From a virus: a stretch of DNA of 64,000 nt. Location: the IMG/VR virus record IMGVR_UViG_3300021141_000001; one strand, written 5' to 3'. The position numbers and the translations under genes are program-made. Under the pieces are notes generated by a model. It did no database searches. It had not been told where the DNA came from and saw only the letters and a list, made by a program, of their open reading frames with translations. Below, in pieces: positions 11,891-58,597 of the stretch (the stretch's first letter is position 1; every line of letters starts with the position of its first letter).

Positions 11891-13231
11891 ATGAGTAAAT
11901 TAGTAACGTTAAACGGAAATAATGATCAAGAACTTCTAAGTTCTATCTTTGACAATGAAATTGTTGTATTTGAAGATATTCAAGGATCAAAAATATGGGT
12001 TAATTGGGATGGTAAAGAATTTACTATTAAACCAAAGTCAATGAGTAGTGAAAAACTTAATCTTGTTGATTTGGCTATTCAAAACTATTATAATCCAGGT
12101 ATTAAATATTTAGAATCATTGGATGTAAGAGTTAAATCATTGTTGAATAAAAAATGGTGGTTTTGTTTTGAGTACTTTCCAGATGAACAACCTGCTAATA
12201 TTGGATATGATAGAGTTCCTAAAAATCATTTAGTTTTAACTGCTATTAATAAAGGTGGTAAGTATGACTTTAGTGTTGAAGAGTTAGATGAGTATGCTAG
12301 ATTATTTGATGTTGATATGTTACCGATTGTTTTTCAAGGTAAACTAACTGAGAGAATGATTGAAGCTATTAAATACTTTATTAATACAAGTGAAGAAGAT
12401 TTAGAGTATGTATTTGGAGAAAAGTCATTTTCATTTTTCTTCTACAGAATATTAAATCCAAGTTCTACTAACTCGTTCTTAATGAAAGATGAAGATTATC
12501 AATCAAATCTTGAGAAACTTATTGTAAGAACTAAAAGTGGTGATATTTCATTTGAAATATTAAATCCTTTATACAGAAGAATAAGTGATAGTAACTCAAC
12601 AGAATTTGTTGAAATTTATACACTTATATTAGTTAACTTCTTAAACTTCTGTCAATCATTTAACTTAGATGAAATTAAATTAAAAGGTGAAAGAAGAGAT
12701 GAAGTTTATATTTATCTAATGTCTAAACTATTCAATGTTTATGTTTCTGAAGTTAAACAAGATTTATTAGACTTTGATTTTGTAGTTCCTGAATTCTTTG
12801 ATAAAGAAAAGTTCAAAATCAATACAGAATTAATTCCTAATAAATTGACCAAAGATTATATTAAAGAATCTGATAAGTTAGAATATATCTTCAAAGTTAT
12901 TCTTGGTTCATTTAACAAGAAAAGAAAGAAAGCAATTGGTGTATTTACTGATAATACAGTTATATTATTTAACACATTTGTCAATGATATTAATGTTTAT
13001 ATTGAAAAGTATCTAAATAAAGTACACGAGGTTGAATTAACAAGAGCTGGTTTGCTTGACTTTGGTGATTTCTTTGAGATTCAATATGATCAAGATGGTG
13101 AAGGTGATGTTTATCCTGATGTTTACTCTGAGTTTGAAAAAGGAACACCTGAAGAAAAGAAGAAAAAAGGTAAAGGTGGTAAAGGTTTACCCGTACCAGA
13201 AGAAGGACCGTCTAAAACTCCTACTAAGTAA
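11891..13231 (+). CDS. RNA-ligase (Rnl2-like nucleotidyltransferase) fold protein lacking the catalytic Lys
   Basis: VVFEDIQGSKIWV where EK(I/L)xGxN is expected; WFCFEYF; MLPIVFQGKL; LEKLIVR; ATG 11891 preferred. Confidence 0.55.
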   Translation: MSKLVTLNGNNDQELLSSIFDNEIVVFEDIQGSKIWVNWDGKEFTIKPKSMSSEKLNLVDLAIQNYYNPGIKYLESLDVRVKSLLNKKWWFCFEYFPDEQPANIGYDRVPKNHLVLTAINKGGKYDFSVEELDEYARLFDVDMLPIVFQGKLTERMIEAIKYFINTSEEDLEYVFGEKSFSFFFYRILNPSSTNSFLMKDEDYQSNLEKLIVRTKSGDISFEILNPLYRRISDSNSTEFVEIYTLILVNFLNFCQSFNLDEIKLKGERRDEVYIYLMSKLFNVYVSEVKQDLLDFDFVVPEFFDKEKFKINTELIPNKLTKDYIKESDKLEYIFKVILGSFNKKRKKAIGVFTDNTVILFNTFVNDINVYIEKYLNKVHEVELTRAGLLDFGDFFEIQYDQDGEGDVYPDVYSEFEKGTPEEKKKKGKGGKGLPVPEEGPSKTPTK

Positions 13232-13443
13232 TGAACTCAATTGATATTAATATGAGAAGTGTTCAAGTTGAAACTAAAACAAGAGCGCTTAGATCTACTT
13301 GGACTCGTGAATTGGCAACTGATTTAGATTCATATCATAATATTGATATTGAAAAGGAACTTTCTCATCTTTTGAAAGAAGAGCTTCGTAAACAACGAGC
13401 TTCTAGTAGAAAAAAATCAATCAATAAAATCTTCCAAAATTAA
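13231..13443 (+). CDS. Mini-protein resembling the gp23 capsid segment that leads into the spine helix, with RxxKI-type tag
   Basis: VQVETKTRALRSTWTRELATDLDSYHNIDIEKELSHLLKEEL resembles T4-like gp23 IEAKSRQLKAAYSIELAQDL..HG.DA..EL..IL..EI (recalled); ends RKKSINKIFQN*. Confidence 0.7.
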   Translation: MNSIDINMRSVQVETKTRALRSTWTRELATDLDSYHNIDIEKELSHLLKEELRKQRASSRKKSINKIFQN

Positions 13444-13474
13444 GAACATAAACTTGGAATTTCATATAATTTAT

Positions 13475-14710
13475 ATGACAGTTTCAAGTGTAATTAAGCT
13501 CAGTGATATAGAGTCCTATTCTTCAATTAAGAAGAATTTAGAGGGTAAGAAATGTAGCTTACAGTTTCTACCGGTTTCGTTAGAAACAATTTCAAAACAA
13601 AAGAATTTTATTTATAAAGGTCAAAAGTTGAAGTCAGCTTATTTGATTGATATTATTCATAATTTAATTCTAAAGTATTATTTCAAAAAAGAAAATAAAT
13701 TTCATTTAATGTCTCCTATTTTAAAGGAGAAGTATGGTTATTTATATAACTACTATATGGATTTTCTTACAGAGAATAAAATTATTATTCTTTTAGCAAA
13801 ACATCAAAAGGGTAAAAGTGCTAGAGTTTATGCCATTAATGAATATATTCTCAGAGGAACTATCATTCGATTTAATAATAGTGATAGGACTTTACTTAAA
13901 AAGTATAAAGCAAAGGTAGCTCAGATAGTAGAAGATAAATTAGAAAACTCACTCATTGATAATGATATAAAGATTAAGTTAGTCGATGATTTATTTAAGA
14001 TTCAAATTGAATTTGATAGGTCAATATTTTATTTAGACTCCTTAAAAAGTGATGATATTGATATTTATAATAGAAATAAATATTCAGTTGAGTGTATTAA
14101 TGATAAACACATATTTTATCATTTTGATAGTTATGGTCGCATGCATACTAACTTTACTATATTAAAGTCTTTTATTAGAAAGAATTGTCTATTAATTAAT
14201 GGTGAAGAAACTCATGAAATAGATATTAAAAACTCACAACCTCTTTTCCTAACTAAATTGATTCAAGATTCCGGTACTAAATGGGTTAATCAAGAAGAAT
14301 TTGAACTATTCAAAAATCTTACTATTAATGGTACTTACTATAACTATATAATGGATCACCTTAAAACAAAAGATAGAGGTATGGTTAAAGAATTAACATA
14401 TAAAGTACTATTTGGTAGAAATGGTGTTAATAGTAAAGCCGATAAGATATTTAGTAGTCTTTTTCCAACTATACATTATTTTATTAAATTGTATAAAAAA
14501 GAACACGGAGATTATAAAGTATTGGCTTATGAATTACAAAAGTCTGAAAGTAATCTTATTTTTAATAAAATTATTAGACAAATAATGACACTTTATCCAG
14601 AAATAAATTTAGTTACTGTACATGACAGTATAATTATACCAAAGTCTTATAAAGATTCGGTTTGGGCAATTTTTCAAACCAAACTTTATGAAGAATTCGG
14701 ACTTATTTAA
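13475..14710 (+). CDS. Family-A polymerase-like (palm motifs A/B/C) protein without exonuclease domains
   Basis: GRMHT, EIDIKNSQP (motif A), R..VK..TYKVLFG (motif B), LQKSES, VTVHDSII (motif C). Confidence 0.6.
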   Translation: MTVSSVIKLSDIESYSSIKKNLEGKKCSLQFLPVSLETISKQKNFIYKGQKLKSAYLIDIIHNLILKYYFKKENKFHLMSPILKEKYGYLYNYYMDFLTENKIIILLAKHQKGKSARVYAINEYILRGTIIRFNNSDRTLLKKYKAKVAQIVEDKLENSLIDNDIKIKLVDDLFKIQIEFDRSIFYLDSLKSDDIDIYNRNKYSVECINDKHIFYHFDSYGRMHTNFTILKSFIRKNCLLINGEETHEIDIKNSQPLFLTKLIQDSGTKWVNQEEFELFKNLTINGTYYNYIMDHLKTKDRGMVKELTYKVLFGRNGVNSKADKIFSSLFPTIHYFIKLYKKEHGDYKVLAYELQKSESNLIFNKIIRQIMTLYPEINLVTVHDSIIIPKSYKDSVWAIFQTKLYEEFGLI

Positions 14711-14735
14711 GAAATAAAAACTTATATATAACTTT

Positions 14736-14885
14736 ATGAAACAATATCATTTAAAATCTAAAATTTCTGAAGAATCTTTTGCCAAATTTGTAGCATCATC
14801 TTTAGAAGAAGCCATTGAGTACTTTTCAAGATTAAAAAAATTATCTAAAAAAGACTTACTTAATATCTACACCGTTACAGATTAA
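14736..14885 (+). CDS. Small hypothetical protein (49 aa, MKQYHLKSK...YTVTD)
   Basis: Manual translation; fills the intergenic gap after TTATATATA. Confidence 0.55.
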   Translation: MKQYHLKSKISEESFAKFVASSLEEAIEYFSRLKKLSKKDLLNIYTVTD

Positions 14886-14910
14886 GTATATTATTTTTAA
14901 TATATACTTT

Positions 14911-15450
14911 ATGACAGGATTGGAACACAAGGATGCCTCATTTATTCTACTATCATCTACACGTTTAGATGATATGATATCTATTTTATATGCCAAAGAA
15001 TATCAAGTATTACCCATTAAAGGTTACTACAAGGGTCAATATGAAGACTCTGTAATGGCTTATGGTAAAGTAGATAATGATACTTTAAGAAAAGATGTTC
15101 TTTTTCTTTTAAATCATTTCCATGAAGAATGTGCTATTATTAAATACACTGAAGAAACTAATGCTAAAAAGATATTTAAAGATGGATCTGAGATACCTAT
15201 GGGTATTGTAATGTATAATACAGATTCTGATAATATGTCTTATTTACATAATGGTACATCATTCTCATTTGTTGAATCTAAAAGATATTGGAGACCAACT
15301 AAAAAAGAAGATTTCAGAGTTGGTATGCTAGTTGAATATTTCAATAATAATAAGTGGTTTGAAAAGCTTGTTGAGAATCCTAATGATGAATATGAAAAAC
15401 TTTATAAACTACTTATAAAGTATGATAAAGTTAGAGTTCCTTCTAAATAA
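14911..15450 (+). CDS. Hypothetical protein
   Basis: ORF; TAATATATA at 14898-14906. Confidence 0.7.
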   Translation: MTGLEHKDASFILLSSTRLDDMISILYAKEYQVLPIKGYYKGQYEDSVMAYGKVDNDTLRKDVLFLLNHFHEECAIIKYTEETNAKKIFKDGSEIPMGIVMYNTDSDNMSYLHNGTSFSFVESKRYWRPTKKEDFRVGMLVEYFNNNKWFEKLVENPNDEYEKLYKLLIKYDKVRVPSK

Positions 15451-16222
15451 TTTCAAACCAATTTATAATCTTAGAATAATTAGGAGTTTCTTTTAAGAAA
15501 TATCTCATGTCATTTGGACAGTTAATTACATTTAATCCATTCTCAGTTTTCTGAGCATTTCTCATCATAATAATCTTATTTGATTTGATATAAGGAGAAG
15601 GTATAACATTCATACCATTTATATTTCCATCCACAACACCATCTTTTATATCAGACATCATCATTCCATTAGACATCAGAAGATATTTATAAGCATCTAA
15701 ACCAACTATAATAGTATTGGCTGGTCCTGTTCTTCCGGTTGATGATATTAGATTACTGGTCATCATTAATCTTGTTATAACTTTTCTTGATGTTGATGAC
15801 TCATTTTCATAATCTGTTAGATTAGGATCTTTTTGAATAGAAACATTCAAATTTTGAGGAATATTCATTGACTTTGATGTTAATGATTCTAATGTCATCA
15901 TAACATCATTGTAAATATCAAATAAGTCTAAATAGGTTTTACCTTGAACATTAATAGAGTTAAGTTTAGGAGTTATAGTCATCATATAACTTTCGTTATC
16001 TAATGGATTTGAAAACGGTTCTCTATTTTTGAACTCTTCAACTTTATCATCTATAATAGCATCAATCGCAAGTTCACGATTCTTTCTTTTTAATTCTCTT
16101 TGATATTCCTCATTGGATGATTCATCCCAATCCATAAAAGTCATTACACCTTGTGGCAAAGAAGGCTTTGTAGATTCTACATAGTTACAGATTTTCTCTA
16201 AATCTTTAGATGAAATTATCAT
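15443..16222 (-). CDS. Protein containing a gp23 capsid A-domain-like region and an internal RxxAI tag
   Basis: SRKVITRLMMTSNLISSTGRTGPANTIIV...GNINGMNVIPSPYIKSNKIIMMRN aligns by eye with this phage's MCP QRKLITKIAHASNYIATEGRVGPAQYLIT...GSIGDISIYVDPYMRYNDNRIVLGRK. Confidence 0.7.
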   Translation of the reverse strand: MIISSKDLEKICNYVESTKPSLPQGVMTFMDWDESSNEEYQRELKRKNRELAIDAIIDDKVEEFKNREPFSNPLDNESYMMTITPKLNSINVQGKTYLDLFDIYNDVMMTLESLTSKSMNIPQNLNVSIQKDPNLTDYENESSTSRKVITRLMMTSNLISSTGRTGPANTIIVGLDAYKYLLMSNGMMMSDIKDGVVDGNINGMNVIPSPYIKSNKIIMMRNAQKTENGLNVINCPNDMRYFLKETPNYSKIINWFEII

Positions 16223-16970
16223 ATTTATTCTTCATTCCAATTTTTGGCAATTGGTTAAGAATAACCTTTTGTAACTGAGATTTATCCATTTGAGAGGTTT
16301 TAGTTAGTAAATCTAAATTTCTTTGATACCACTTCATATCTGGCATTCCTCTTTCATGATATAAATGAAAACATTTAGATTGTAGCTCAGTCCAAGTTAA
16401 GAATTGTTTAACCTTTATTGATTGAAAGTCATCTTCACCACCCCATCCTATAAAATCTTCATTCCAACCAGCTATTCTTTGAATTGCGTCTCTTCTAAAA
16501 ATACAAATTCCACCACATAAAGGCACTTTTTGTATATCGGTTTCGCCTCTACCTGGTCTGTTAATTTGAAGAAGTTGTTCTAGTGATAAATTACTTTCTT
16601 GTTGAGTTAAATCAATTACTGTATGATATGGATTACACATTTCAAATTCATTCATTGACTCTAAACCTCTTATAAAAGAGTTTGGTTCCATTATTAAATC
16701 TGAATCACCAAATACAATTATGTTTGATGTTGAATGTTTTAAACCTACATTAAATGCCAGTGACTTATTAAAAGGTAGATTTGACTTTGTGAAGATATGT
16801 TTTGATTTGAGACCTAGATGAGATATTTTAGAGTGTGTGTCTTGTTCTACAACAATTACTTCAACTCTAGCAAAGCCATTAATCCAGTCAAGTACTCTTC
16901 TTAAATTTTGTAACCTTTCTAAACTATGTCTATAGGCTATGATAAATGTAAATGTATAATTTGAATTCAT
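16206..16970 (-). CDS. Glycosyltransferase (GT2/GT7-like)
   Basis: IIAYR, VVEQD, FNKSLAFNVG, FGDSD (DxD), GWNEDFIGWGGEDDF, HLYH. Confidence 0.88.
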   Translation of the reverse strand: MNSNYTFTFIIAYRHSLERLQNLRRVLDWINGFARVEVIVVEQDTHSKISHLGLKSKHIFTKSNLPFNKSLAFNVGLKHSTSNIIVFGDSDLIMEPNSFIRGLESMNEFEMCNPYHTVIDLTQQESNLSLEQLLQINRPGRGETDIQKVPLCGGICIFRRDAIQRIAGWNEDFIGWGGEDDFQSIKVKQFLTWTELQSKCFHLYHERGMPDMKWYQRNLDLLTKTSQMDKSQLQKVILNQLPKIGMKNKYDNFI

Positions 16971-17061
16971 TAAAGAATATTATTTTTTATTTATATCAAA
17001 TAGAATCTATTTGTTTAGTGTATAAGTATTGATACTTTATATATAAGTAATATAAAATGTT

Positions 17062-17724
17062 ATGAAAACAAATCGTAAAAATAATTTAATTTTAAACTAC
17101 TATAAAGATGAAGTAGAAGATAGAAATTTAGAACTATTAACTTGCTTTGTGAAAAATTTAAATAATGATTATATTCATAATATAGTTGTTATTTCAAACG
17201 AAAATGATTATTACTCATTAAATACAAATTTAGTAGATAATAAAAATAAAATTATTCCTATATTAACTGAAGTGAGACCGACCTATAATGATTACTTTTC
17301 AATAATAAGAAATCTATTTAATGATGATAATAACATAAATATCATATCAAACTTGGACATTATAATTCCACAAGAAACATTATATAGCGAAGTATCAAAA
17401 ACAATAAATGATTATATAGATAGTAAAACTTGTCTAGCTTTATCTCGTTGGGATATACAAGAAGACAACACTTATGTTCATTTTGATAGATCTGATTCTC
17501 AAGATACCTGGATTTTTCTTGGTGGTATTCCTAACATTGATGGTGCTGATTTTACTCTTGGTAGATCTGGTTGTGATAATAAAATATCATATCTTCTTGA
17601 TGAAAGTGGATACTTTGTTATAAACCCCTCAAAGACATTAAAAACATATCATTTACATTTAACAAATATTAGAAACTATGGTAGTGTAATACCGCCTCCA
17701 TATAAATTATTACCGACTTTTTAA
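17062..17724 (+). CDS. Putative glycosyltransferase-like protein
   Basis: ISNLDI, ALSRWD, DSQDTWIF, GCDNKI, HLH motifs; located in the GT island. Confidence 0.5.
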   Translation: MKTNRKNNLILNYYKDEVEDRNLELLTCFVKNLNNDYIHNIVVISNENDYYSLNTNLVDNKNKIIPILTEVRPTYNDYFSIIRNLFNDDNNINIISNLDIIIPQETLYSEVSKTINDYIDSKTCLALSRWDIQEDNTYVHFDRSDSQDTWIFLGGIPNIDGADFTLGRSGCDNKISYLLDESGYFVINPSKTLKTYHLHLTNIRNYGSVIPPPYKLLPTF

Positions 17725-18735
17725 TTAAGATATACTTACAAAAAAATCCGCTAGTTTTTTAACATATTCTTTACCAAATTTATCTCTCACATATTCTTTT
17801 CCTTGATTGGCTATCATATGACCTTCATCGCTTTCTATCCATTTTTTATAAAAAGAATTATCTTTTATAAGACCATTTTCATCAAAACAAGGTATATAAT
17901 GAATATATTCTATCAGACCTAATTGTTCTTTCAGTAGCGGATTTGGTTCAAAAAATCCAATACATCCACACATAAGTACTTCTATATGTTTAGCCAATAA
18001 AAAATTTATCGGATATACATAATGACCTACAAATGCTGCTTTATATTTAGATAATTCTTTATAGTAATTTAACTCAGTCATATGATCATTATTTTTATAT
18101 CCTGGGTGATCAATTTTGTAAATTAAATCCTTAAATAATACATCCTTTCTTAAATTATCAAATTCGACTCTAGAGTCATAACCTTTTACTATATCACCCG
18201 ACAAGACAACACCATTTATTCTTTTTTCAAATTTTGACTCATCTATGTACTCGTAGTTTTCTTCATTTAAGAAATAAAAAAAGTCTACTATTTTTTCATC
18301 AAATTCATTTATTTTTAAATTTTTAAAATATATTGAAGATGGTGTTATTAGATAGTCTACATCTTTAATGTAAAATGGTTCGTATTTTTTTGAAAATCTC
18401 TGTACAATCTCGCCATCTCTTTCAACAAAATGAGCAAAGTAGTGAAGGTCATCTTGCCACATGACTTTTTTTATTCCCTTTCCATTTTTTATTGCGATTT
18501 CCCATCCATATGGATGTATTCCAAATATTATAAAGTCTTTTTTATTTTCAATCTCTTCTAAAAACTCAATTTCTGTCTTATTTAAAACTTCTTTAATATA
18601 TTTTGATGTTATTATTTCAATTCCTCTTTCTTCAAATATTTTTATTATAGACTCGTCATAAAACATCTTTATTAGATTTCTAATAAGACTTGAGACACTA
18701 TAGTTGTCGCTTTCACTTAGTACAATTAGTTTCAT
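17725..18735 (-). CDS. Putative GT-B glycosyltransferase
   Basis: WQDDLH, HPGY, KHIEVLMCG, IANQGKEYV C-terminal GT-B pattern; ATG 18735 preferred. Confidence 0.6.
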   Translation of the reverse strand: MKLIVLSESDNYSVSSLIRNLIKMFYDESIIKIFEERGIEIITSKYIKEVLNKTEIEFLEEIENKKDFIIFGIHPYGWEIAIKNGKGIKKVMWQDDLHYFAHFVERDGEIVQRFSKKYEPFYIKDVDYLITPSSIYFKNLKINEFDEKIVDFFYFLNEENYEYIDESKFEKRINGVVLSGDIVKGYDSRVEFDNLRKDVLFKDLIYKIDHPGYKNNDHMTELNYYKELSKYKAAFVGHYVYPINFLLAKHIEVLMCGCIGFFEPNPLLKEQLGLIEYIHYIPCFDENGLIKDNSFYKKWIESDEGHMIANQGKEYVRDKFGKEYVKKLADFFVSIS

Positions 18736-18739
18736 GTGT

Positions 18740-23514: not shown

Positions 23515-23916
23515 ATGGAGAAAAAAGTAGGAAGAATTGAAAATATTTCTTTTCCGGAACTTAAAATAGAAAAGATAAAGGCAAAAGTAGATACTGGTGC
23601 TTATGGAGTTGCTTTACATGTTGATAGTATAAAACTTGAAGATGGTAAGTTATATTTTACAGTTGGTAATGAAGAGTTTTCTTATAATAAATTCAAAACT
23701 ATTATAGTTAAAAATTCATTTGGTAAAGTTCAGAAAAGATTTTCTATATTTACTAAATTAACAATTGGTGATTCAATATATAAATTTTATGTATCTTTAA
23801 CAGATAGAAAAAAAATGAGATATCCTGTTTTAATAGGTAGAAGATTCCTTTACAAATTCAACTATTTAGTTGATGTAACAAAAAAGAATATAAATGATAG
23901 AAATAAAAAGGTGTAA
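23515..23916 (+). CDS. RimK-associated retropepsin-like putative protease
   Basis: AKVDTGA, VKNSFG, LTDRKKMRYPVLIGRRFL. Confidence 0.85.
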   Translation: MEKKVGRIENISFPELKIEKIKAKVDTGAYGVALHVDSIKLEDGKLYFTVGNEEFSYNKFKTIIVKNSFGKVQKRFSIFTKLTIGDSIYKFYVSLTDRKKMRYPVLIGRRFLYKFNYLVDVTKKNINDRNKKV

Positions 23917-24424
23917 TTATATTACCGGAAATCCTTCAGACGTTTCTTATGCTGTTAAGAAAATAGTTGACTTCTTAGATATGGAGGGTAGAAATCCGGT
24001 CTTATTTTGTAAACCAAGAAGTTCAAACTCTACTGCTACTACACTTAAATATTTAATGGAACCTAAAATAAACTTCAATAATATTGAAGATTTTACAGAA
24101 GTATTAAATAATAAAGGTAATCTATTTAGAGTTGATTTATTAGTATTCGATTTTTGGCATTTGAGTGTTTCTTCAATAATAGAATATAAACAAGTTATTG
24201 ATAAATTAAATATTGATTATATAATATTAGCCAAAGAGTATCATTATAAATCATCTGAGGATGTTAATGATTATCATGTTAAAATTGAATCTAGAGAATT
24301 ATATCACAGTGAATACTCAATAACTGATAAAATATCTGGATGGACTTCAAACTTAGAAAATTTATCAAAATCTTACATTCGTAATAAAAAAATTGACGAT
24401 ATTTTCAATAAAAATGATGAATAA
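23894..24424 (+). CDS. Possible degenerate RecA/DnaB-like domain with C-terminal RxxKI tag
   Basis: NYITGNPSDVS (no Walker A), VDLLVFDF (Walker-B-like), ends YIRNKKIDDIFNKNDE*. Confidence 0.45.
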   Translation: MIEIKRCNYITGNPSDVSYAVKKIVDFLDMEGRNPVLFCKPRSSNSTATTLKYLMEPKINFNNIEDFTEVLNNKGNLFRVDLLVFDFWHLSVSSIIEYKQVIDKLNIDYIILAKEYHYKSSEDVNDYHVKIESRELYHSEYSITDKISGWTSNLENLSKSYIRNKKIDDIFNKNDE

Positions 24425-31268: not shown

Positions 31269-31299
31269 AACATATTTCTATTATTTAATATAATAATTG

Positions 31300-31776
31300 A
31301 TGTTTGATAAAAATTTCAATATTATACATGGTGATAGAATTTCTGGTAGAACAGAGTTTCTATTTAATATTTCTAATAGTTTTAATAAAGTAGGATTAAA
31401 ACTATTTTTCTTATCATGTACAGGTGATATTGAGACTAAAGATAGATTTAATGATATCTTTGATGATTATAGAATTATAAACACATTTGATGAAGTCAAT
31501 AATTATAAAGTAATAGAAGTTGTAAAAGAACTATCTGAAAAAAGAAAGTATAATTTTCTAATTATAGATGATATTGATTACTTGCCAAAATCTTGTGTTG
31601 ATTTATTATCAGAAATAGATACTTCTAAAATTGTAACTTGTTTAAGTGACAATTATAAAAAACTACCTGAAGAATCTAATTTTTATAATATAAGTGATGT
31701 TAGTGATTTATCTAATATTGATGAAATTGTTAAAAAAATAATTAGAGACCAAAAAATAAATTCAGTATTAAAATGA
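31300..31776 (+). CDS. Degenerate RecA/DnaB-like P-loop domain with C-terminal RxxKI tag
   Basis: NIIHGDRISGRTEFL (Walker A with K to R), FLIIDDID (Walker B), ends IIRDQKINSVLK*. Confidence 0.55.
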   Translation: MFDKNFNIIHGDRISGRTEFLFNISNSFNKVGLKLFFLSCTGDIETKDRFNDIFDDYRIINTFDEVNNYKVIEVVKELSEKRKYNFLIIDDIDYLPKSCVDLLSEIDTSKIVTCLSDNYKKLPEESNFYNISDVSDLSNIDEIVKKIIRDQKINSVLK

Positions 31777-34093: not shown

Positions 34094-35620
34094 ATGTTAG
34101 TTGAAACACAATACTTAACAAATAGTAAGAAATTAGTAGTTAGTTACGTTGATAAAACCGGTGATATAAAGCTTAAATATTATAATTGGGAAGATCCAAT
34201 GAAATATGTTGCTTGTGAAGATACAGATGTACAAAAACATCCTGAGTTTAGATCATGGGATGGTAAATCTGTAAAACAAATAGAAGTAAATCACCCTGAT
34301 AGATATGCTATCTATGAGTTCTTGGATGGTTTACCTGAATCAGAAAAAAATGAAATATTTGAATTTAATCTTCCTAAGATTTATTTTATAGATATTGAAA
34401 CCGAAATCGTTGATGGTTTCCCGGAAGCGGCTGATGTTAAAGACCAAGATGGTAATGTAACAAAAGAAGGTGCTTCTACTCAAGTTCTTTCAATTTCAAT
34501 TGTATATGATGATAAAATCATTCTTTTAGGTCTTAAAGAAATGTCAGAAGAAGTTCAAGAAAGAATTACAAATAACACTAATAAATACTTTGAGAAGTTT
34601 GGTACTGAATATAAATTCAAATACATTAAATATGATGATGAGTTTGATATGCTTTATGCTTTCTTCTATAAGATGATTCCTAAGATGCCAATTCTAACTG
34701 GATGGAACTTTCTTCAGTATGACTGGTTATATTTAGTGAATCGTTCTAGAAAGATTTCTAAATGGGTAAATGGTAAAGAATATAAAATTGATCCAGCTGT
34801 TTCATCTTTGACAAAAAGAATGAATAAGATTTGGTCTACTGAATTTGAAGTACCTGCTCATCGAATGATTTTTGATTACATGCAACTTTATGAAATATGT
34901 GATACTTCTATTAAAGTAAAAGAGTCATCATCATTAGATTTCGTTGCTAATAAATTAGTTGGTGTTGAAAAGATTAAATATAATGGTTCATTACAAAAAC
35001 TTTATGAAGATGATTTTGAAACATTTATGTATTATAACGCAGTTGATAGTGTTCTAGTACAAAAGATTCATGAAGCTCGTAACTATATCTCAATTATTTA
35101 TGCGATTTCATCATTGGCTCAAATTAGAATCATCGATGTTGTTTCTCAAATGAATAATGCTCTAGGTTCTTTGGCTATTACAGAAGGCGTTTTAAGAAAT
35201 AGATTCCGTAAGATGGACAACATTGTACTTTTCCGAGATGAAAGAGGTGATGCTGATTCTACAATTGCTGGTGGTTGGGTAAAAGATCCTGTGGTCGGTA
35301 TGAATCAGTGGTGTGTTACTTATGACTTTGCCTCACTTTATCCAACAACTCAAAGACAATTCTTTATTGCTCCTGAAACATTTATTGGTCTTCAAGATGA
35401 AAAAGATAAATCTAAGTGTACTAACGGTAGACCTATCGATCCTGATAAACACGTTCTTTGTATCAATGGTGTTGTATTTGAAAAAAGAATATCTCCAACT
35501 TTAAATATGCTTGAAGACGTTTATGCTGATAGAAAGAAAGCTAAGAAAGTCATGATGGATAAAAAAGAAGATTTGAAGAAGATTTTAGACGAAATCAAAC
35601 AGTTAGAGGCGGAAATTTAA
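34094..35620 (+). CDS. Family-B DNA polymerase, N-terminal subunit of a split enzyme (gp43A-like)
   Basis: Exo I FIDIETE, Exo II TGWNFLQYDW, Exo III YNAVD, motif A YDFASLYP; stops in the fingers (YADRKKAK...) before motifs B and C. Confidence 0.85.
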   Translation: MLVETQYLTNSKKLVVSYVDKTGDIKLKYYNWEDPMKYVACEDTDVQKHPEFRSWDGKSVKQIEVNHPDRYAIYEFLDGLPESEKNEIFEFNLPKIYFIDIETEIVDGFPEAADVKDQDGNVTKEGASTQVLSISIVYDDKIILLGLKEMSEEVQERITNNTNKYFEKFGTEYKFKYIKYDDEFDMLYAFFYKMIPKMPILTGWNFLQYDWLYLVNRSRKISKWVNGKEYKIDPAVSSLTKRMNKIWSTEFEVPAHRMIFDYMQLYEICDTSIKVKESSSLDFVANKLVGVEKIKYNGSLQKLYEDDFETFMYYNAVDSVLVQKIHEARNYISIIYAISSLAQIRIIDVVSQMNNALGSLAITEGVLRNRFRKMDNIVLFRDERGDADSTIAGGWVKDPVVGMNQWCVTYDFASLYPTTQRQFFIAPETFIGLQDEKDKSKCTNGRPIDPDKHVLCINGVVFEKRISPTLNMLEDVYADRKKAKKVMMDKKEDLKKILDEIKQLEAEI

Positions 35621-48448: not shown

Positions 48449-48458
48449 ATAATTATAT

Positions 48459-49980: not shown

Positions 49981-49987
49981 TTAAACT

Positions 49988-50017
49988 AAAAACCCACTCA
50001 TTTGAGTGGGTTTTTTT
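49988..50017. terminator. Bidirectional terminator
   Basis: AAAAACCCACTC-ATTT-GAGTGGGTTTTTTT. Confidence 0.85.
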
Positions 50018-50738: not shown

Positions 50739-50752
50739 ATAATATATATTAA

Positions 50753-51523: not shown

Positions 51524-51589
51524 ATTTCACTGGTTATTTTTTATTATATATTATTTTCACGAAGGTCATGTTGTCGAATATATACTTTG

Positions 51590-52306: not shown

Positions 52307-52317
52307 AATATAAAATT

Positions 52318-52713
52318 ATGTCTATTATAATAAGAAACTCACAATTAAATGATGAAACAATTGCCGCTTTAAATAAATTAGTTGATGTTGATATTAACGC
52401 TTCGGTGGCATTTAAATTAATGAGAATTATTAAAGAAATATCTTCTATTGTTGATGATAAGAATAAGATGGAACAAATGATTATTAGTAAACACTCTGAA
52501 AAGGATGAAGAAGGTAAAGTTGTTCAAGCTAAGGATGACCAAGGTAATCCAATAGGTATTAATATTAAAAATATAGAATCATTTTCTGCTGATATGGAGG
52601 ATTTTATGAGTGTTGAGAATGAGATAGGATATGATAAAATTAATTTTGAAGATTTAAATTTACAAACTGCTAGAGTCAAAGATTTAATGAAATTAGAATT
52701 TTTATTCAATTAA
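52318..52713 (+). CDS. Hypothetical helical phage protein
   Basis: ORF only. Confidence 0.65.
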   Translation: MSIIIRNSQLNDETIAALNKLVDVDINASVAFKLMRIIKEISSIVDDKNKMEQMIISKHSEKDEEGKVVQAKDDQGNPIGINIKNIESFSADMEDFMSVENEIGYDKINFEDLNLQTARVKDLMKLEFLFN

Positions 52714-52738
52714 AAAAAAGTCCTTCAGGACTTTTTTT
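52712..52738 (+). terminator. Intrinsic terminator
   Basis: AAAAAAAAGTCC-TTCA-GGACTTTTTTT. Confidence 0.75.
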
Positions 52739-52797
52739 GTTTTAAACCAATAAATAGTCTTGTCTTTTTAATATATACAAAAAAAGAATAAGATTAA

Positions 52798-54375
52798 ATG
52801 CCAGCTACATATAGTATAAGTGTTGGAACACCAACAGAAGCTTTGAGAAAGCAGGATATTAACAGTGTTCTATTAGATTTACCTGATAATACCCAAAAAT
52901 TAATATCACCTAGAGATGTTAGAGATGCTTTTGTAACTACTTGGGCTAATTCGGCTTTTAAACAAACGATTGGACAAGCTAGTATTGAATATTTAGGTAT
53001 TGACTCTGGTAATCCTAATAATAGAGATATCAAACAAAAGATTTTTATTGGTAAAAGAAGTTATGCTGGTTTGGATATAATGAATAATTCTTTATTAAAT
53101 GATACTAATAATGATATTTATATTTTTAACACAAAACCAGATAATTATTCAACACAAAGTACAACAATTACTATCTTAGCTGGAACTAATTCTTCATTAC
53201 ATTCATATGCTCCTTATATACAATCAAATGTTGTAAATTCTGGTAATGCTTTAGGATTAGATTTTATTAATCCTTCGCAGTTTTCAGGACCTATTAATGT
53301 TTATAGTAATACCGGTAGAGTTGCTATTAATGGTATTTTATTTCCAACAGTTTCTGAGACTTCTGCTTCAGCATCTAATGGTAAGATATTAAAATATTCT
53401 GGTACTTATCCAAATGGTGTTCTTAGATGGACCGAACCAACAGTTAGTATTGCTAATATTGGATCTCCTGGATTACCAACAAATATTTATGGTAGTCCAA
53501 GTAATGTAAATGGTCATTCTTTAGAGTTTGTTGATAGTTCTCCTGTGCCTATTGCGGTTGGTGGTATTGCTCAAGGTAGTTCTTTTTCAGCTGGTTCTTA
53601 TAATGGTCAGAATTGGCCCTTATCAGAAGTTATTAGAAAAATATTATATCCTTATGTACCACCTACTTTATCATTGAGTGTTGATACTAATGGTGTGAAT
53701 TATTTTACAACAGGTTTGACTCACTCAGCTTTATTTAGTTATTCAATTACTAGATATACAAATGATATTAATAGTTATAATATAACAGGTACTACATATT
53801 CTGGTTTATCTTTTAGTGGTGTTGTTGGTAGTCAATTTAGTGCTACTTTTAGTTCTAGTATTTATAGTAATGCTACCATTACAAATAATTTATTAAATAC
53901 TCTTCCATATGTTAGTGGACTAACACAAAGTTATGTTTTAAGTGCTCGTGATAATACAGTTCTTTTAACTTTTTCACATAGTGCTACAGCTTCTGTGAAG
54001 TTTGTACATCCTAGCTTTTATGGATTTAGTTTAACTAAAATAACATCTGGTTCTTTGTTGGGATCTTTTGTTAATTCATCTACTAGACTTGCTCTTCCTT
54101 ATTTAGGATCTCAGTCAGTTTCTTTGAATTATAATGGTTCTGGTTATGTTTATTTTGTAGTTCCTAATATTTATCCAGATTTATCTAAAATTAAAGATCC
54201 AAATGGATTTATTATACATGACTCTACATTACCAGCATTGACCGTATTTACACATTCTACATATGCTCCATCTGGAGGTAATAATTTACCAACACCAGTG
54301 CCTTCTTATAGAGTATATAGAACAATTGGAACATGTAGTTATACCAGTAGTGGTAATTTTGAATTTATATTTTAA
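52798..54375 (+). CDS. Putative virion structural/tail protein (paralog A)
   Basis: S/T/G/N-rich, beta-like; TAATATATA at 52769-77; collinear with the next gene. Confidence 0.65.
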   Translation: MPATYSISVGTPTEALRKQDINSVLLDLPDNTQKLISPRDVRDAFVTTWANSAFKQTIGQASIEYLGIDSGNPNNRDIKQKIFIGKRSYAGLDIMNNSLLNDTNNDIYIFNTKPDNYSTQSTTITILAGTNSSLHSYAPYIQSNVVNSGNALGLDFINPSQFSGPINVYSNTGRVAINGILFPTVSETSASASNGKILKYSGTYPNGVLRWTEPTVSIANIGSPGLPTNIYGSPSNVNGHSLEFVDSSPVPIAVGGIAQGSSFSAGSYNGQNWPLSEVIRKILYPYVPPTLSLSVDTNGVNYFTTGLTHSALFSYSITRYTNDINSYNITGTTYSGLSFSGVVGSQFSATFSSSIYSNATITNNLLNTLPYVSGLTQSYVLSARDNTVLLTFSHSATASVKFVHPSFYGFSLTKITSGSLLGSFVNSSTRLALPYLGSQSVSLNYNGSGYVYFVVPNIYPDLSKIKDPNGFIIHDSTLPALTVFTHSTYAPSGGNNLPTPVPSYRVYRTIGTCSYTSSGNFEFIF

Positions 54376-54377
54376 TA

Positions 54378-55919
54378 ATGGCAACATATAGTATCAATAC
54401 AGGAACTTCAACAGAAACGATGACCTATAATATAATAGGAGCTACTGCTATTGATTTAAGTCCAGTTCTTGATATTTTAAAAGATAATAGTAATAAAGAA
54501 ATAAATCCTAAGGATATTAGAGATGCTGTTTTAACATCATTTTCTAATTCAGCATTTAAACAAACATTAGCATCACAATCAACTATTTCTTACATTGGTG
54601 TTGATACAGTTAATCCTAATTATTTAAATAAAGATGTTAAGAAAAAAGTTTATTTTGGAAAAAGAGCTTTTTCACAATTAAATTCTTATTCATATACAGA
54701 TGATATAATGACTTCTAGTTTGTTAAATTCTGATACTGATATTTTTCTTTATAATACTAAAAAAGATACAGTATCTAATAATCGAACAAAAATTGCTATA
54801 TTAGCAGGTACTAATTCTTCTTTATATACAAATTCACCTTATTTACAATCACAAATAATTACTGTTGGTACTTATTCTTCTTTATCTTTAGATATTATTA
54901 ACCCAACTATTACTGGCGCTACTTATGCCGTTATTAATTTCAATAGTGACTCTGGAACTGTTTCTTTTAATAATATAGCTTTTCCTAGTCCTCAATCATC
55001 ATATGGTTTGATACCTGGATTAACTGCTGCTGGTAATGATAGAGTTTTAAAATGGAATAATGGTATTTTAGGTTGGGATGATATTTTATTACCAGATACT
55101 AGTTATATAGGCGTAACTGGAAGTGCTATTAATATTTATGGTTCTCCAGTAAATGTTAATGGTTATCCTTTAGAGTTTACTGATAGTCGACAATGTACAG
55201 TGCCTATTGGAGATATTCAATTAGGTGAAACATTTAATTCAGTTTCAATTGTTGAAATGTTAAGAAGAATGGTTTATGATTATTTACCACCTACATGTAG
55301 TTTATCTGTTTTACCTCCTTATTCATCAGGTTATGTTGAGGTTGGTTCAACACCTTTAATAAAATTAGGTTACACTATTAATAAAAAAAGTTTACCTACT
55401 CAGACATCTATATTTTATTATATGATACCAAGTAGTTATCCACCTATTACAACCAATGGTCAAGTATCTGTTTCGGGTACAGTTAATGGTGTTGTTATTA
55501 CACCTATTACTAGTGCTACTACTTCATTTACAATAACAGTGAGTGATGGTACTCAATCTAATTCATCAAGTACTACAGTGACTGGTATTTATCCTTATTT
55601 TTATGGATTCAGTTCACTTACAACAATGACAACAGCCGGTTTGGCAGCATTGACAAAATTAGTAGAGCCTCAAGGAATAAAAAATATTGATGTTATTGGT
55701 AATGGTAATTTATATTTTATTTATGATAGTAATTATCCTTTATTAAGTGCTATCTATAATGAATTTGGAAATACAATTTCTGGTTCTTTTTCATCACCTA
55801 CAATTTTAACATTATCATCACCTACTGGTCTTTGGGCTTCAAAACAGTTTAGAGTTTATCAATATAATGGTGTTCCTCAAATTGGACCACCATCAATAAA
55901 TTATCAATTCAAATATTAA
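54378..55919 (+). CDS. Putative virion structural/tail protein (paralog B)
   Basis: INPKDIRDA..NSAFKQT and NIYGSP.NVNG..LEF shared with 52798-54375. Confidence 0.65.
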   Translation: MATYSINTGTSTETMTYNIIGATAIDLSPVLDILKDNSNKEINPKDIRDAVLTSFSNSAFKQTLASQSTISYIGVDTVNPNYLNKDVKKKVYFGKRAFSQLNSYSYTDDIMTSSLLNSDTDIFLYNTKKDTVSNNRTKIAILAGTNSSLYTNSPYLQSQIITVGTYSSLSLDIINPTITGATYAVINFNSDSGTVSFNNIAFPSPQSSYGLIPGLTAAGNDRVLKWNNGILGWDDILLPDTSYIGVTGSAINIYGSPVNVNGYPLEFTDSRQCTVPIGDIQLGETFNSVSIVEMLRRMVYDYLPPTCSLSVLPPYSSGYVEVGSTPLIKLGYTINKKSLPTQTSIFYYMIPSSYPPITTNGQVSVSGTVNGVVITPITSATTSFTITVSDGTQSNSSSTTVTGIYPYFYGFSSLTTMTTAGLAALTKLVEPQGIKNIDVIGNGNLYFIYDSNYPLLSAIYNEFGNTISGSFSSPTILTLSSPTGLWASKQFRVYQYNGVPQIGPPSINYQFKY

Positions 55920-55937
55920 AAATTTTATATATACACT

Positions 55938-57158
55938 ATGGCAATACAAATTATAGATGGATTTCAAGTAAACACCGCTTTACCGATAGATAACAGAATA
56001 GTTGCTTCTGGATCAACAGCAAGAAATGCTATACCTTATAAATATCATGGTTTAAGAGTATTTGATATATCAAATAATATACCTTATGTTTGGAATGGTT
56101 CATCTTGGGTTTCTGAGAATGCCTCCGGTATTGTTGGTTCTGGTACAAGTACTTTTTTCCCTTTATTTACATCATCTAATGTTGTAGGTGATAGTTTTTT
56201 ATATCAAGATGGTGGAGTTATTAAAACAGGTGATGATGGTGGTGGATCTGATTTAGTTGAAATTAGTCCATATTATGGAACAGTTACTGTCCAAGGTGGT
56301 TTTGTTGGACCTGGTACTTCTATTACTAACATAAATGGTTCTAATATAAATAGTGGTTCTATACCAGTTAATAAACTAGTAAATGGTTCAACTGGTCAAG
56401 TTTTAGTATCAAGTGTTACTAATCCTTTTTGGTCAAATACTAGTCAATTATCTGTAGGTACTGCTTCTGTTGCTGTTAATGCTACACAGGTTTCTATTAC
56501 CGGCACCGATGCTTCATCTACCGAAAGATATTTGACATTTATTGATACAATCAATATTAGTCCTGTTAATAATATAGTTAAGGCGAATACAACTTTAAGA
56601 TTTAAACCATCTACTGGTCAATTATTGATAAATTCTGGTGCTGTTGCTACTCCAGGTATTGGTATTATAGGTACTACAAATACTGGTATTTATAAATATA
56701 GTACTAGTGGACTTGGTATAACGGTTGCTGGTTCTGAAAAGGCATCTTTTAATACTGATGGTATCAGACATGTGAATACTACTTTTAGTAATCCTGGAAA
56801 TATTGCTTCTTTTGTAGTTGGTACTGGTAATTTAACTCGAGCAACACAAATAACTATTGCTTCTGTTACTTATGATAGAGTTATATATGTTTATAGCAGT
56901 AGTAATGAAAATAATTATTATTCTACTTCTGGCTTCTTTGAAATAGAAATTTACATCATTAATGGAGGAGTTAATCAACAAATATATACTATTTTTCATG
57001 GAAATGATAGTGATATTAGACCTACAGGTATAGGATATAACTATATTTTACCTGCCGGTTCATCATCTACTATAAGTCTTTATAAGGGTAATAACTTAGC
57101 GTGGAATGCCGGGTCTGGGCCTACAATTTATGCTAAGTCTTTGAAATTTGGTCTTTAA
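55938..57158 (+). CDS. Putative tail fibre/appendage protein
   Basis: PIDNR...YHGLRVFD..YVWNGSSW N-terminus; G/S/T-rich; TTATATATA upstream. Confidence 0.6.
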   Translation: MAIQIIDGFQVNTALPIDNRIVASGSTARNAIPYKYHGLRVFDISNNIPYVWNGSSWVSENASGIVGSGTSTFFPLFTSSNVVGDSFLYQDGGVIKTGDDGGGSDLVEISPYYGTVTVQGGFVGPGTSITNINGSNINSGSIPVNKLVNGSTGQVLVSSVTNPFWSNTSQLSVGTASVAVNATQVSITGTDASSTERYLTFIDTINISPVNNIVKANTTLRFKPSTGQLLINSGAVATPGIGIIGTTNTGIYKYSTSGLGITVAGSEKASFNTDGIRHVNTTFSNPGNIASFVVGTGNLTRATQITIASVTYDRVIYVYSSSNENNYYSTSGFFEIEIYIINGGVNQQIYTIFHGNDSDIRPTGIGYNYILPAGSSSTISLYKGNNLAWNAGSGPTIYAKSLKFGL

Positions 57159-57160
57159 GA

Positions 57161-57847
57161 TTACTCTTCTATTTTTTCAAACCACCAATTGAAATAAATG
57201 TAGTTATCACCAACTAGATTGTAATAATCGGTTTCGTATTTAACAACCATTTTATTATCATGAGCTCTAATTAATTCTATTTCAATTCCTTTATCCATTT
57301 TTAACTGTTTACCAGTCTCAGTTGAATAACAATATAACTCATCGTTTAGCAGTTTATACATACCTGGTTCAGGTTTTAGCCAAGATTTAATTGTTTTAAT
57401 AATAAGTCCTTTGATTTTAATAATCCATTCTTTACTTTGATATAAATCAAAATCTTTGAATACTTCTGATGTGAATTCTGGATTAGGACTCATAACATTT
57501 TCAATAACACCCCAATATTCATAATCATCAATTACAAAAGTAATATAAGCGTCATAGAATATACTATTTGATTTAACAATTCTAAGAATTTTCATCTTTT
57601 GAATATCTTGACTTTCTAAACCTAATTTACTTCTTAAATTTTTATAAGCACTAGTACCTGCTAAATTATAAAGAATGTCATTAACTCTTGACATTGCTTG
57701 TCTAATAGCATCTGCGTGTTTATCAAAGGCATTAGTTGATAAAGATGGATCATCAACACCACCAATTGCTCCAGCAGCAGAATCTGGATTCATTCTTTGC
57801 ATGTTAAATTCAGTAAATTCTAAAATAAGTTTATTCTTACGTTTCAT
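57161..57847 (-). CDS. Hypothetical late protein (LILEFTEFN CTS-like motif)
   Basis: ORF; bidirectional promoter upstream. Confidence 0.7.
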   Translation of the reverse strand: MKRKNKLILEFTEFNMQRMNPDSAAGAIGGVDDPSLSTNAFDKHADAIRQAMSRVNDILYNLAGTSAYKNLRSKLGLESQDIQKMKILRIVKSNSIFYDAYITFVIDDYEYWGVIENVMSPNPEFTSEVFKDFDLYQSKEWIIKIKGLIIKTIKSWLKPEPGMYKLLNDELYCYSTETGKQLKMDKGIEIELIRAHDNKMVVKYETDYYNLVGDNYIYFNWWFEKIEE

Positions 57848-57851
57848 AATA

Positions 57852-57867
57852 TTAATATATATATTAA
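57852..57867. promoter_or_regulatory. Palindromic bidirectional late promoter TTAATATATATATTAA
   Basis: Contains TAATATATA on both strands between divergent genes. Confidence 0.65.
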
Positions 57868-57885
57868 AATTATCAAACCATTATT

Positions 57886-58203
57886 ATGAAAATTAAAAGA
57901 TTCAATGAAGACGAACAAGTAGATATCTCATCTGAAAGAGTTAGTGAAATTAATGAAGAATTAAAAGACTTTGCTGCTATTATGTTAGATAAATCTAAAT
58001 ATATTGAGTCTCTTCTAAATGAACTTAATAACTTCAGAAGTGATTCTAAAAAAGGTAATGATCAAATAGATGATTCTATTGCGGCTCTTCAAGTTATAAA
58101 GAAAGATGTTGATGATTGTAATGATAAGATTGATACTGTTATCAATAATTTAATGGATTACAATGATGGTGGTAGAAAATATATGTATACCGAAAACAAG
58201 TAA
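57886..58203 (+). CDS. CTS-leader coiled-coil protein
   Basis: MKIKRFNE; heptad pattern. Confidence 0.7.
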   Translation: MKIKRFNEDEQVDISSERVSEINEELKDFAAIMLDKSKYIESLLNELNNFRSDSKKGNDQIDDSIAALQVIKKDVDDCNDKIDTVINNLMDYNDGGRKYMYTENK

Positions 58204-58224
58204 TTAAATTTACTGTATAATACT

Positions 58225-58347
58225 ATGGCGGTTTGGGAAAATATACCTGAGTGTAAAAAAGAGTCTATAATTAAATCTTTATATAGATTTGATAGGATTC
58301 AAAAAAGAAAGAAAACAATCAAAAGATTATTTAATGTTAATAGGTAA
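58225..58347 (+). CDS. 40-aa peptide ending in an RxxTI-type tag (MAVWENIPECKKESIIKSLYRFDRIQKRKKTIKRLFNVNR)
   Basis: Manual translation; overlaps the start of the next gene; carries the shared tag. Confidence 0.5.
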   Translation: MAVWENIPECKKESIIKSLYRFDRIQKRKKTIKRLFNVNR

Positions 58348-58597
58348 AAAGTCTGATAATTTAATAGAACCAGGTTATGTTTATGCTCCTTATATACCAA
58401 TGACTACGGCTCAGACTGTAGTTGGATATGGTTCAAAAAATGTAAGTAGAAAGAGAAAAATTAATAAGATATTTGATTTAGGTTTAGATGTTAAAGATGA
58501 ATTCTCACCAAGTAAATCAATTATGAGTAGATACTCTAAAAAGATTATAAATAATAAATTTTACGGAACTATAGAAATAAAAAATCCCACTTATTAA
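58334..58597 (+). CDS. Mini-protein resembling the C-terminal segment of a gp23-like capsid protein, with an inserted RxxKI tag
   Basis: MLIGKKSDNLIEPGYVYAPYIPM...FSPSKSIMSRYSKKIINNKFYGTIEI resembles gp23 G.KG....AG..YAPY...F.P..G.(K/M)TRY; ATG 58334 preferred. Confidence 0.7.
   Translation: MLIGKKSDNLIEPGYVYAPYIPMTTAQTVVGYGSKNVSRKRKINKIFDLGLDVKDEFSPSKSIMSRYSKKIINNKFYGTIEIKNPTY

Follow-up and report, generated by a model that had tools for sequence, protein, structure and literature searches.

A compact capsid protein paralog and a class of tagged capsid-slice mini-genes, possibly molecular mimics, in an uncultured huge freshwater phage

Why a phage with an intact gene for its major capsid protein (MCP) should carry three further, dispersed genes that resemble parts of a T4 gp23-type capsid protein is the question raised by a 64,000-nucleotide stretch of viral DNA (IMG/VR record IMGVR_UViG_3300021141_000001), which we call the window. 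The source is an uncultured huge freshwater phage whose nearest named relatives are the “uncultured phage” records LR745206 (634,780 bp) and LR756502 (642,428 bp); its DNA was found in many lake-water metagenomes, in at least 14 lake runs. A first-pass annotation of the window had placed three open reading frames (ORFs), at 13231-13443, 15443-16222 and 58334-58597, beside an intact MCP gene at 4280-5983, and had read them as separate, consecutive pieces of gp23. All four genes are present. The MCP gene (plus strand, 567 residues) matches the Pfam family Gp23 (PF07068) with an E value of 5.9e-28, and the other three ORFs match the same family, well beyond what chance would give. Here we argue that the middle gene encodes what its predicted structure indicates to be a minimal yet complete capsid protein from the T4 gp23/gp24 lineage, and that the two outer ORFs, which we refer to as mini-genes 1 and 3, belong to a clade-wide class in which a common peptide tag is attached to a short slice of some conserved phage protein. 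The combined reading, in which a complete capsid paralog exists beside this class of tagged slices and the slices act as mimics, has in our judgment about an even chance of being correct.

The middle gene (15443-16222, minus strand) encodes a protein of 259 residues. A phmmer search of this protein against PDB sequences returned no matches, as did one with the product of mini-gene 3, so that a fold search was needed. AlphaFold2 (AF2), using a 71-sequence alignment, gave a model with a predicted local distance difference test score (pLDDT) of 93.2 and a predicted template-modeling score of 0.85. Compared with the T4 gp23/gp24 structures (1yue, 5vf3 and 7vrt), the model shows an HK97-type fold along its whole length (VIA Z scores of 15-17.6). 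Residues 1-259 aligned with gp23 of the unexpanded T4 head at Z 17.6 (216 aligned residues, root-mean-square deviation 8.4, chain 106-519) and with the T4 vertex protein gp24 (1yue) at Z 15.0 (232 aligned, deviation 6.8, chain 29-419). The HK97 and encapsulin shells gave Z values of about 12.6, and the Foldseek matches likewise span the whole model. Profile comparison agrees with the structural result: hhalign of the family profile against the phage's own MCP covered MCP residues 394-516 with a probability of 97.5% (E 7.4e-12). The direct Pfam Gp23 match (profile positions 185-305, 19.8 bits, E 6e-4) falls under the curated cut-off of 24.4 bits. The family contains 290 homologs of near-equal length, forming 120 clusters at 50% identity. 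All its matches are 281 residues or shorter, most of them about 230-280, the full-length members align across the entire query including the N-terminal 100 residues, and not one full-length MCP was found among the matches. The whole-length HK97 fold and the uniform size of the family rule out that this gene is a fragment.

The AF2 model of the 259-residue protein has the N-arm, E-loop, spine helix, A-domain and P-domain and lacks the delta domain. A weak BLAST segment (residues 69-92 against own-MCP residues 297-320), taken together with the order of strand and helix in the model, places the pre-spine strand and the spine helix at residues 82-114. Judging from the topology, the helical hairpin at residues 38-65 would occupy the place of the insertion domain of gp23 and gp24. 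The protein thus differs from these T4 proteins in its size (259 against 427-521 residues), in the absence of the delta domain and in having a helical hairpin instead of an insertion domain. The ratio of nonsynonymous to synonymous substitution rates (dN/dS) of the gene is 0.14-0.26, tighter than that of the own MCP (0.27-0.38), which indicates strong purifying selection. The protein matches the own MCP (E 8e-7) better than the MCP of Microcystis phage Mel-JY01 (E 0.003), which is what a paralog specific to the lineage, for instance a vertex protein, would be expected to show, and in the relatives its counterpart is the only other full HK97-type match. The head module of T4-like phages likewise includes a second, MCP-derived shell protein, gp24. 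We infer that the 259-residue protein serves as a minor component of the shell, with a counterpart of the vertex (penton) protein as the most likely identity. In contrast to the T4 arrangement, the gene does not lie beside the MCP gene. It lies on the other strand, 9.5 kb downstream, and shares an operon with a family-2 glycosyltransferase gene (16206-16970, minus strand; Pfam Glycos_transf_2/Glyco_transf_7C). The 3′ end of the glycosyltransferase gene overlaps the start of the 259-residue gene by 17 nt, and a promoter-like motif, TTATATATA, lies upstream of both at 17038-17046 on the minus strand.

The completeness of the middle gene bears on another explanation of the locus, namely that one gp24-like capsid gene has been split and that its products reassemble non-covalently, with the tags described below serving as zippers. 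The notion of three consecutive gp23 pieces holds insofar as the local Pfam matches do follow one another (profile positions 132-182, 185-305 and 302-354). It fails because the middle gene encodes a whole fold that overlaps both of the other ORFs; its own-MCP span runs into the region assigned to mini-gene 3 (own-MCP residues 498-560). Further pieces, corresponding to the N-terminus and an A-domain helix, do occur in relatives, and the family-B DNA polymerase of this clade does reside in two distant genes. However, when the MCP-like mini-ORFs of the clade are placed on the Mel-JY01 MCP, they cover residues 1-113, 294-355, 405-439 and 477-536 only, which are four conserved blocks and not a partition, and their nearest relatives differ from those of the middle gene. 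The split genes of T4-like phages, such as gp43 or nrdA of Aeromonas phage Aeh1, also distribute an essential protein family over separate ORFs at different loci. There, true pieces partition the sole copy and reassemble, whereas here the full genes are intact, the slices are confined to conserved blocks and a whole fold makes up one of the “pieces”. The complete middle gene, the patchy coverage and the intact MCP together exclude a capsid gene in pieces for practical purposes, and we assign this explanation a very low probability.

Mini-gene 1 (13231-13443, plus strand) encodes 70 residues comprising the P-domain strand and spine helix of a T4-type MCP, with the tag at the end. It matches Pfam Gp23 at 44 bits (cut-off 24.4; E 2.5e-11; profile 132-182), PHROG 138 agrees, and it aligns directly with T4 gp23 residues 256-299 (E 0.004), that is, with the strand leading into the spine helix and the helix itself. 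Its family comprises 85 homologs of 60-70 residues. The tag, RKKSINKIF (residues 60-68; 13408-13434, plus strand), is invariant in an alignment of 28 sequences, while other columns of the protein drop to 41% identity; it aligns weakly with ISKQIVAKIFE, where the spine helix of the own MCP ends. The ATG of mini-gene 1 overlaps the stop codon of an upstream gene of unknown function (11891-13231, plus strand) in the arrangement TAATG, which indicates translational coupling, and TTATATATA stands ahead of that gene at 11838-11846. One 575-nt metatranscriptome contig from one RNA library covers all of mini-gene 1; such contigs show the presence of a region and carry no information on strand, level or ends. 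The spacing of 2 kb and the divergent orientation of mini-gene 1 and the 259-residue gene are kept even in the most distant records.

Mini-gene 3 (58334-58597, plus strand) encodes 87 residues that correspond to the C-terminal ~65 residues of a T4-type MCP (the P-domain hairpin and the C-terminal strand) with a tag module inserted. Its start is likelier to be the ATG at 58334, as in its homologs, than the TTG at 58289. The Pfam Gp23 match is just above the cut-off (24.6 against 24.4 bits; E 2e-5; profile 302-354), and in the hhalign comparison with own-MCP residues 498-560 a 23-residue insert carrying the tag appears as a gap. The family is large (314 homologs of 85-102 residues) and its dN/dS is 0.28-0.67. 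AF2 gave no confident fold for the mini-gene 3 product alone (pLDDT 45), the sole predicted element being a helix at residues 32-47 that contains the tag, RKRKINKIF (residues 39-47; 58448-58474, plus strand). A complex prediction for the products of mini-genes 3 and 1 returned “no answer” with a score of 0.00, which is evidence neither way. Mini-gene 3 closes a compact operon as its last gene. An exact copy of the late-type promoter motif TAATATATA (57853-57861, plus strand) is followed by a gene for a 105-residue helical protein of unknown function (57886-58203, plus strand; no family match), a 40-codon tagged ORF (58225-58347, plus strand), mini-gene 3 itself and a bidirectional terminator-like hairpin (58581-58607). 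The hairpin has a 12-bp stem, and two such structures were found in the window against 0.2 expected; TAATATATA occurs 20 times against 5.3 expected, one copy (4242-4250) lying ahead of the own MCP gene. It had been stated that none of the three ORFs has a TAATATATA promoter of its own. Although literally true, this overlooks that the motif heads the operon of mini-gene 3 and that mini-gene 1 and the middle gene lie downstream in operons preceded by TTATATATA.

The product of the 40-codon ORF carries QKRKKTIKRLF near its C-terminus (tag profile E 1.4e-4). The ORF overlaps the start of mini-gene 3, and homologous mini-ORFs occupy the same place in two relatives, G002 and G003. When the parents of this ORF and of eleven other mini-ORFs were sought among the proteins of the window, nothing significant was found. 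The 105-residue gene precedes tagged mini-ORFs in G002, G003 and LR745206 too. Its high conservation extends to LR745206, and it invariably lies directly upstream of the tagged mini-ORF cluster; its product is a candidate functional partner of the tagged mini-ORFs.

Do these short genes derive from the MCP of the phage that carries them? Mini-gene 1 shares 43% identity over 53 residues with residues 294-346 of the Mel-JY01 MCP (E 4e-14) but only 25% identity with the own MCP (E 0.046). Likewise, mini-gene 3 shares 35% identity over 82 columns with Mel-JY01 MCP residues 477-536 (E 1.8e-12), whereas its match to the own MCP is limited to 21 residues (E 0.02). In tblastn searches, both fragments hit one and the same set of MCP genes in cultured T4-like phages, those of Microcystis and Synechococcus cyanophages and of Flavobacterium phages. 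The first-pass annotation was therefore right that the two mini-genes are closer to canonical T4-type MCPs than to the own MCP and that they are not recent duplicates of it; by sequence they resemble the foreign proteins more. The own MCP has 246 relatives in IMG/VR and an almost invariant C-terminal half. Within the clade it is invariant at exactly the segments covered by the mini-genes, yet differs there from the canonical sequence. These relationships fit a mimic aimed beyond the phage's own capsid.

The same relationships would also fit interference between phages, if the slices were dominant-negative poisons that co-assemble with the MCP of a co-infecting T4-like phage, to which the diverged own MCP would be immune. 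The fragments are 35-43% identical to the MCPs of T4-like phages and barely alignable to the own MCP, at segments where the latter departs from the canonical form. On the other hand, the C-terminal fragment of LR745206 is nearer to the clade's own MCP, a scaffold fragment in a relative is 59% identical to the clade's own scaffold, and short motifs of terminase or polymerase, which are also suggested among the tagged genes, would not poison assembly. We consider interference to be quite unlikely as the explanation.

A second concern is whether the mini-genes have any function, since an old second capsid gene could have decayed to these remnants. Mini-gene 1 reaches dN/dS values of 0.8-0.95 in some pairs and has lost a part in distant relatives, as a remnant might. 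However, no relative has an interrupted frame, even where the neighboring gene shares only 33% identity, and the three ORFs remain separate genes in the nearest IMG/VR record, in records of 476 kb and 176 kb, and in LR745206 and LR756502 (33-36% identity). The tag is invariant while its codons change synonymously, both mini-gene families (85 and 314 members) keep their size, starts are coupled, the operon of mini-gene 3 is bounded by a promoter motif and a terminator, and the middle gene is under purifying selection. Open frames, constraint at the peptide level and family sizes exclude pseudogene decay, to which we attach a negligible probability. On these comparative grounds we regard the mini-genes as real, conserved, selected at the peptide level and organized in operons with late-type promoter motifs, and the claim that mini-genes 1 and 3 are intact and selected is borne out.

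The feature that unites the class is the tag, with the consensus R-K-x-[KS]-I-x-[KN]-[IL]-F. Searching the window with a hidden Markov model of the tag retrieved mini-genes 1 and 3 and the ORF at 58225-58347 with E values of 2e-5 to 1e-4; the next best match was at 0.19. All three capsid-like ORFs had been said to carry the tag. This is statistically clear for mini-genes 1 and 3, whereas the middle protein has a motif that is only weakly alike (hhalign E 0.05-0.16), NRELAIDAII (residues 48-57; 16052-16081, minus strand). It has the same spacing as the tag, falls below the strict tag profile and lies in helix 38-57 (pLDDT ~89-96), with R49 invariant in 71 sequences. From the strand order and the gp23/gp24 alignment, this motif would sit at the insertion-domain site. 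The conserved residues of the tag are encoded by varying codons (AGA/AGG/CGA/CGT, ATA/ATT/ATC and TTT/TTC), so that selection acts on the peptide and not on a DNA signal; an origin at the nucleotide level, as a mobile element, promoter or terminator signal, was ruled out by this variation. The tag behaves as a module: mini-gene 1 carries it at the C-terminus, and mini-gene 3 has it internally in this phage but C-terminally in LR745206. In the relatives, the tag profile matches exclusively open frames of 35-102 residues, 9-14 per large record. A looser motif is enriched: 9 of the 71 ORFs of the window contain it (1.7 expected), and 4 ORFs have it among their last 25 residues (0.12 expected). 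Three larger ORFs have looser tag ends: 23894-24424 (176 residues, IRNKKIDDIF), 31297-31776 (159 residues, IRDQKINSVL) and 61107-61535 (142 residues, REKKITEIL). The 159-residue ORF is a short P-loop (AAA_22-like) piece below the size of a full helicase.

The parents of the tagged mini-ORFs in relatives extend beyond the MCP. The non-tag part of one mini-ORF matches the scaffold repeats of the clade with an E value of 2e-19. Weaker matches link others to a protease motif (E 0.002) and to terminase (TerL) residues 85-125 and 237-249 (E 0.007-0.018). Pfam searches with ten other tagged mini-ORFs found no family, apart from a weak repeat match shared with the scaffold. The full-length TerL and MCP genes are intact, and since the parent genes persist, the mini-genes are neither pseudogenes nor a split gene. 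In the window, the scaffold belongs to the head-module gene at 2075-4198, a fusion of a prohead protease (residues 23-139, weakly matching Peptidase_S77) with a scaffold-like region of ~12 repeats of 14 residues (AENLDKNISYSEYL type) and an acidic tail. TTATATATA, the variant motif that also precedes the operons of mini-gene 1 and of the glycosyltransferase and paralog, lies 30 nt upstream of this gene. A tagged mini-ORF in LR745206 copies four scaffold repeats of this type.

Other MCP-like pieces were also observed in relatives. G002 (1138-1756 of L034) and G003 (1308-1974 of L030) encode an N-terminal MCP piece consisting of the delta domain, the N-arm, the first E-loop strand and a tag-like charged insert. 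It is followed by a chimera of 66-81 residues whose N-terminus is sheath-like (SPGVY..E.D) and which also contains the tag and a terminase motif, IITSTP.GPNNF; a T5orf172/GIY-YIG-like gene adjoins the chimera. In G003 (L028 1258-2007), a 249-residue protein resembles the C-terminal half of the clade MCP in one piece (E 1.4e-8 to own-MCP residues 444-501) and ends in the tag-like sequence QRDIKIDNIL. Full-text literature searches yielded no description of tagged fragment mini-genes; the class is absent from the literature searched and is apparently undescribed.

What might such proteins do? Judged from their sequences, the job of the tagged mini-genes is probably molecular mimicry. Each would consist of a slice, short and unable to fold alone, from a conserved phage protein and of a tag that forms a basic amphipathic helix. 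The slice would mimic a conserved part of a T4-type capsid protein and pair, by strand addition or helix packing, with the usual contact of that part, while the tag would serve as a short linear docking motif tying all the mini-proteins to one shared partner. Candidate targets are a sensor of the host, T4-like phages that co-infect the cell and head assembly in the phage itself. Eukaryotic microProteins such as Id and LITTLE ZIPPER, small derivatives of larger proteins that act as dominant-negative partners, provide a parallel: they too are small, stand-alone proteins with one interaction segment of a larger parent that stays intact in the genome. They differ in that they occur in plants and animals, act on the complexes of their own parent and have no common tag, whereas here many parents share one tag and some slices are foreign-like.

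The tag need not be a docking motif. It could be a generic cationic amphipathic helix for attachment to membranes, a recognition tail of the ClpX type or a clamp-binding tail that localizes the mini-proteins or leads to their degradation. Its basic residues and the I..IF residues fall on one helix face, it is mostly C-terminal, and the C-terminal tail of a relative's polymerase (RRLSVVMDIF...) is similar. Nevertheless, unrelated carriers keep the same residues (R, K, I, I/L and F), a degree of invariance that the binding of a helix to lipids would not require. Possible likenesses of the tag to the delta-domain helix of T4 gp23, the clamp peptide of RB69 polymerase, the membrane helix of MinD and the ClpX tail of MuA are leads that gained no support from PDB sequences, in which the tag profile had no match at E ≤ 10. 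The sliding clamp (Pfam gp45: PF02916 and PF09116) was not found in four relatives, so that the clamp-binding idea gains no support, which does not prove the clamp absent. We rate a non-docking role as improbable.

A docking tag could also act within the phage's own head, as a signal that targets head or scaffold, in which case the mini-proteins would be parts of the prohead core or of its assembly, comparable to gp67, gp68 and the internal proteins of T4, and either packaged or acting as primers or chaperones for the huge capsid. The operons have late-type promoter motifs, the parents are mostly head proteins (MCP, scaffold and protease), the basic tag could in principle, to judge by its charge, bind the acidic scaffold repeats of the gene at 2075-4198, and a tag-like helix occurs inside the capsid paralog. 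Short shared peptides are known to serve as a common address on otherwise unrelated small proteins: the capsid-targeting sequence (CTS) of T4 IPI-III is N-terminal, ~10 residues long and cleaved at L-x-E, and encapsulin cargo-loading peptides dock on an HK97-fold shell. Unlike the T4 CTS, the tag is C-terminal or internal and basic, with no L-x-E site nearby for the protease to cleave. In addition, fragments that resemble terminase ATPase or polymerase motifs do not fit a head-core role, and about one in eight ORFs of the window carries a loose tag, a P-loop protein and unknown proteins among them. A role in head morphogenesis is doubtful.

The remaining candidate target is host immunity. Here the tagged slices would be decoys that present epitopes of core phage proteins to host defenses (Lit/Gol, CapRel or Avs-type STAND proteins), and would thereby dampen or misdirect them, while the tag would recruit a shared neutralizing partner. 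In the T4 system, the Gol peptide of gp23 acts with the Lit protease and EF-Tu, so that a linear slice of an MCP is by itself active on a host defense. This activity is a precedent for a fragment as a ligand, but Gol has no gene of its own and lies within the full-length protein, sets the defense off instead of blocking it, comes from another region and shares no tag. Neither fragment in the window spans the Gol region (gp23 residues ~93-122); they map to gp23 residues 256-299 and to the C-terminal hairpin, and T4 itself lacks slices of 70-87 residues like these. A piece spanning the N-arm region does exist in relatives. The fragments retain family-wide conserved blocks in a form closer to canonical T4-type MCPs than to the own MCP, and their late-type promoter motifs would have them made when their targets are. 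The suggested parents in relatives (MCP, terminase, protease and polymerase) overlap the known targets of sensors, but the known Avs sensors recognize whole folds (bioRxiv 10.64898/2026.01.04.697583), and the slice of mini-gene 3 does not fold alone. Moreover, a fragment that binds a sensor could equally trigger it, and scaffold repeats are not a known sensor target. Immune decoys are a credible but unlikely explanation.

Several observations weigh against the mimic reading or limit it. Some tagged fragments in relatives copy proteins of the clade itself, namely scaffold repeats and, in LR745206, the MCP tail, so a single foreign target does not fit all members. The dN/dS of mini-gene 1 ranges from 0.2 to 0.95 and its spine-helix part is deleted in LR745206 and LR756502, which suggests that the slice itself is loosely constrained. 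The identities of the fragments other than those of the MCP depend on short, weak matches, for which Pfam finds nothing. The shared partner of tag and slices is postulated, and translation of the mini-genes is predicted from sequence. For the paralog, the distance from the MCP gene, the opposite strand and the Pfam score under the cut-off count against the vertex role that we infer. Taken together, the foreign-like sequence of the two window fragments favors a target outside the own capsid, which would be a sensor of the host or a T4-like competitor, while the own-type scaffold and MCP-tail fragments of relatives and the late-type, head-like context keep a role in assembly alive. The most specific version of the mimic reading is a “peptide mimic library”: at least a dozen tiny late genes, each offering a single block conserved in some core phage protein, in its canonical, foreign-like form, and one docking helix for a common partner, would counter host immunity or co-infecting T4-like phages while exempting the diverged own MCP. 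As a joint claim, we advance it only tentatively and think it more apt to be wrong than right.

Other features of the window were noted alongside. The family-B DNA polymerase is split: the gene at 34094-35620 (plus strand, 508 residues) is limited to the exonuclease part and motif A. The C-terminal half in LR745206 (474 residues, motifs B and C) is located ~100 kb away from the N-terminal half and ends in RRLSVVMDIFGGFK, which bears a loose likeness to the tag; this half was not found in records G001-G003, which may be incomplete. An intergenic gap of 524 bp (8295-8818) had summed contig depths of 160 and 631 in two metatranscriptome runs, against single digits nearby. It contains TTATATATA at 8332 and a sole ORF of 55 codons (8384-8551), had no Rfam match and gave a fold z-score of -1.2; a small, abundant RNA or a gene for a small protein may lie there. 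Neither the Rfam scan nor the tRNA scan found anything in the window as a whole.

If the slices are mimics, the tagged mini-genes would be a new kind of phage gene, in which modular “bait plus address” peptides are made from the most conserved blocks of virion and replication proteins, and they would bear on how giant phages handle the fold sensors of their hosts and compete with smaller phages. The invariant nine-residue tag offers a handle for finding the receptor. The 259-residue paralog is among the smallest capsid proteins of the T4 lineage and is a candidate for closing or decorating very large capsids. Gene callers label such genes “hypothetical” or “Gp23”, and knowing the class avoids misreading them as broken capsid genes or assembly errors.

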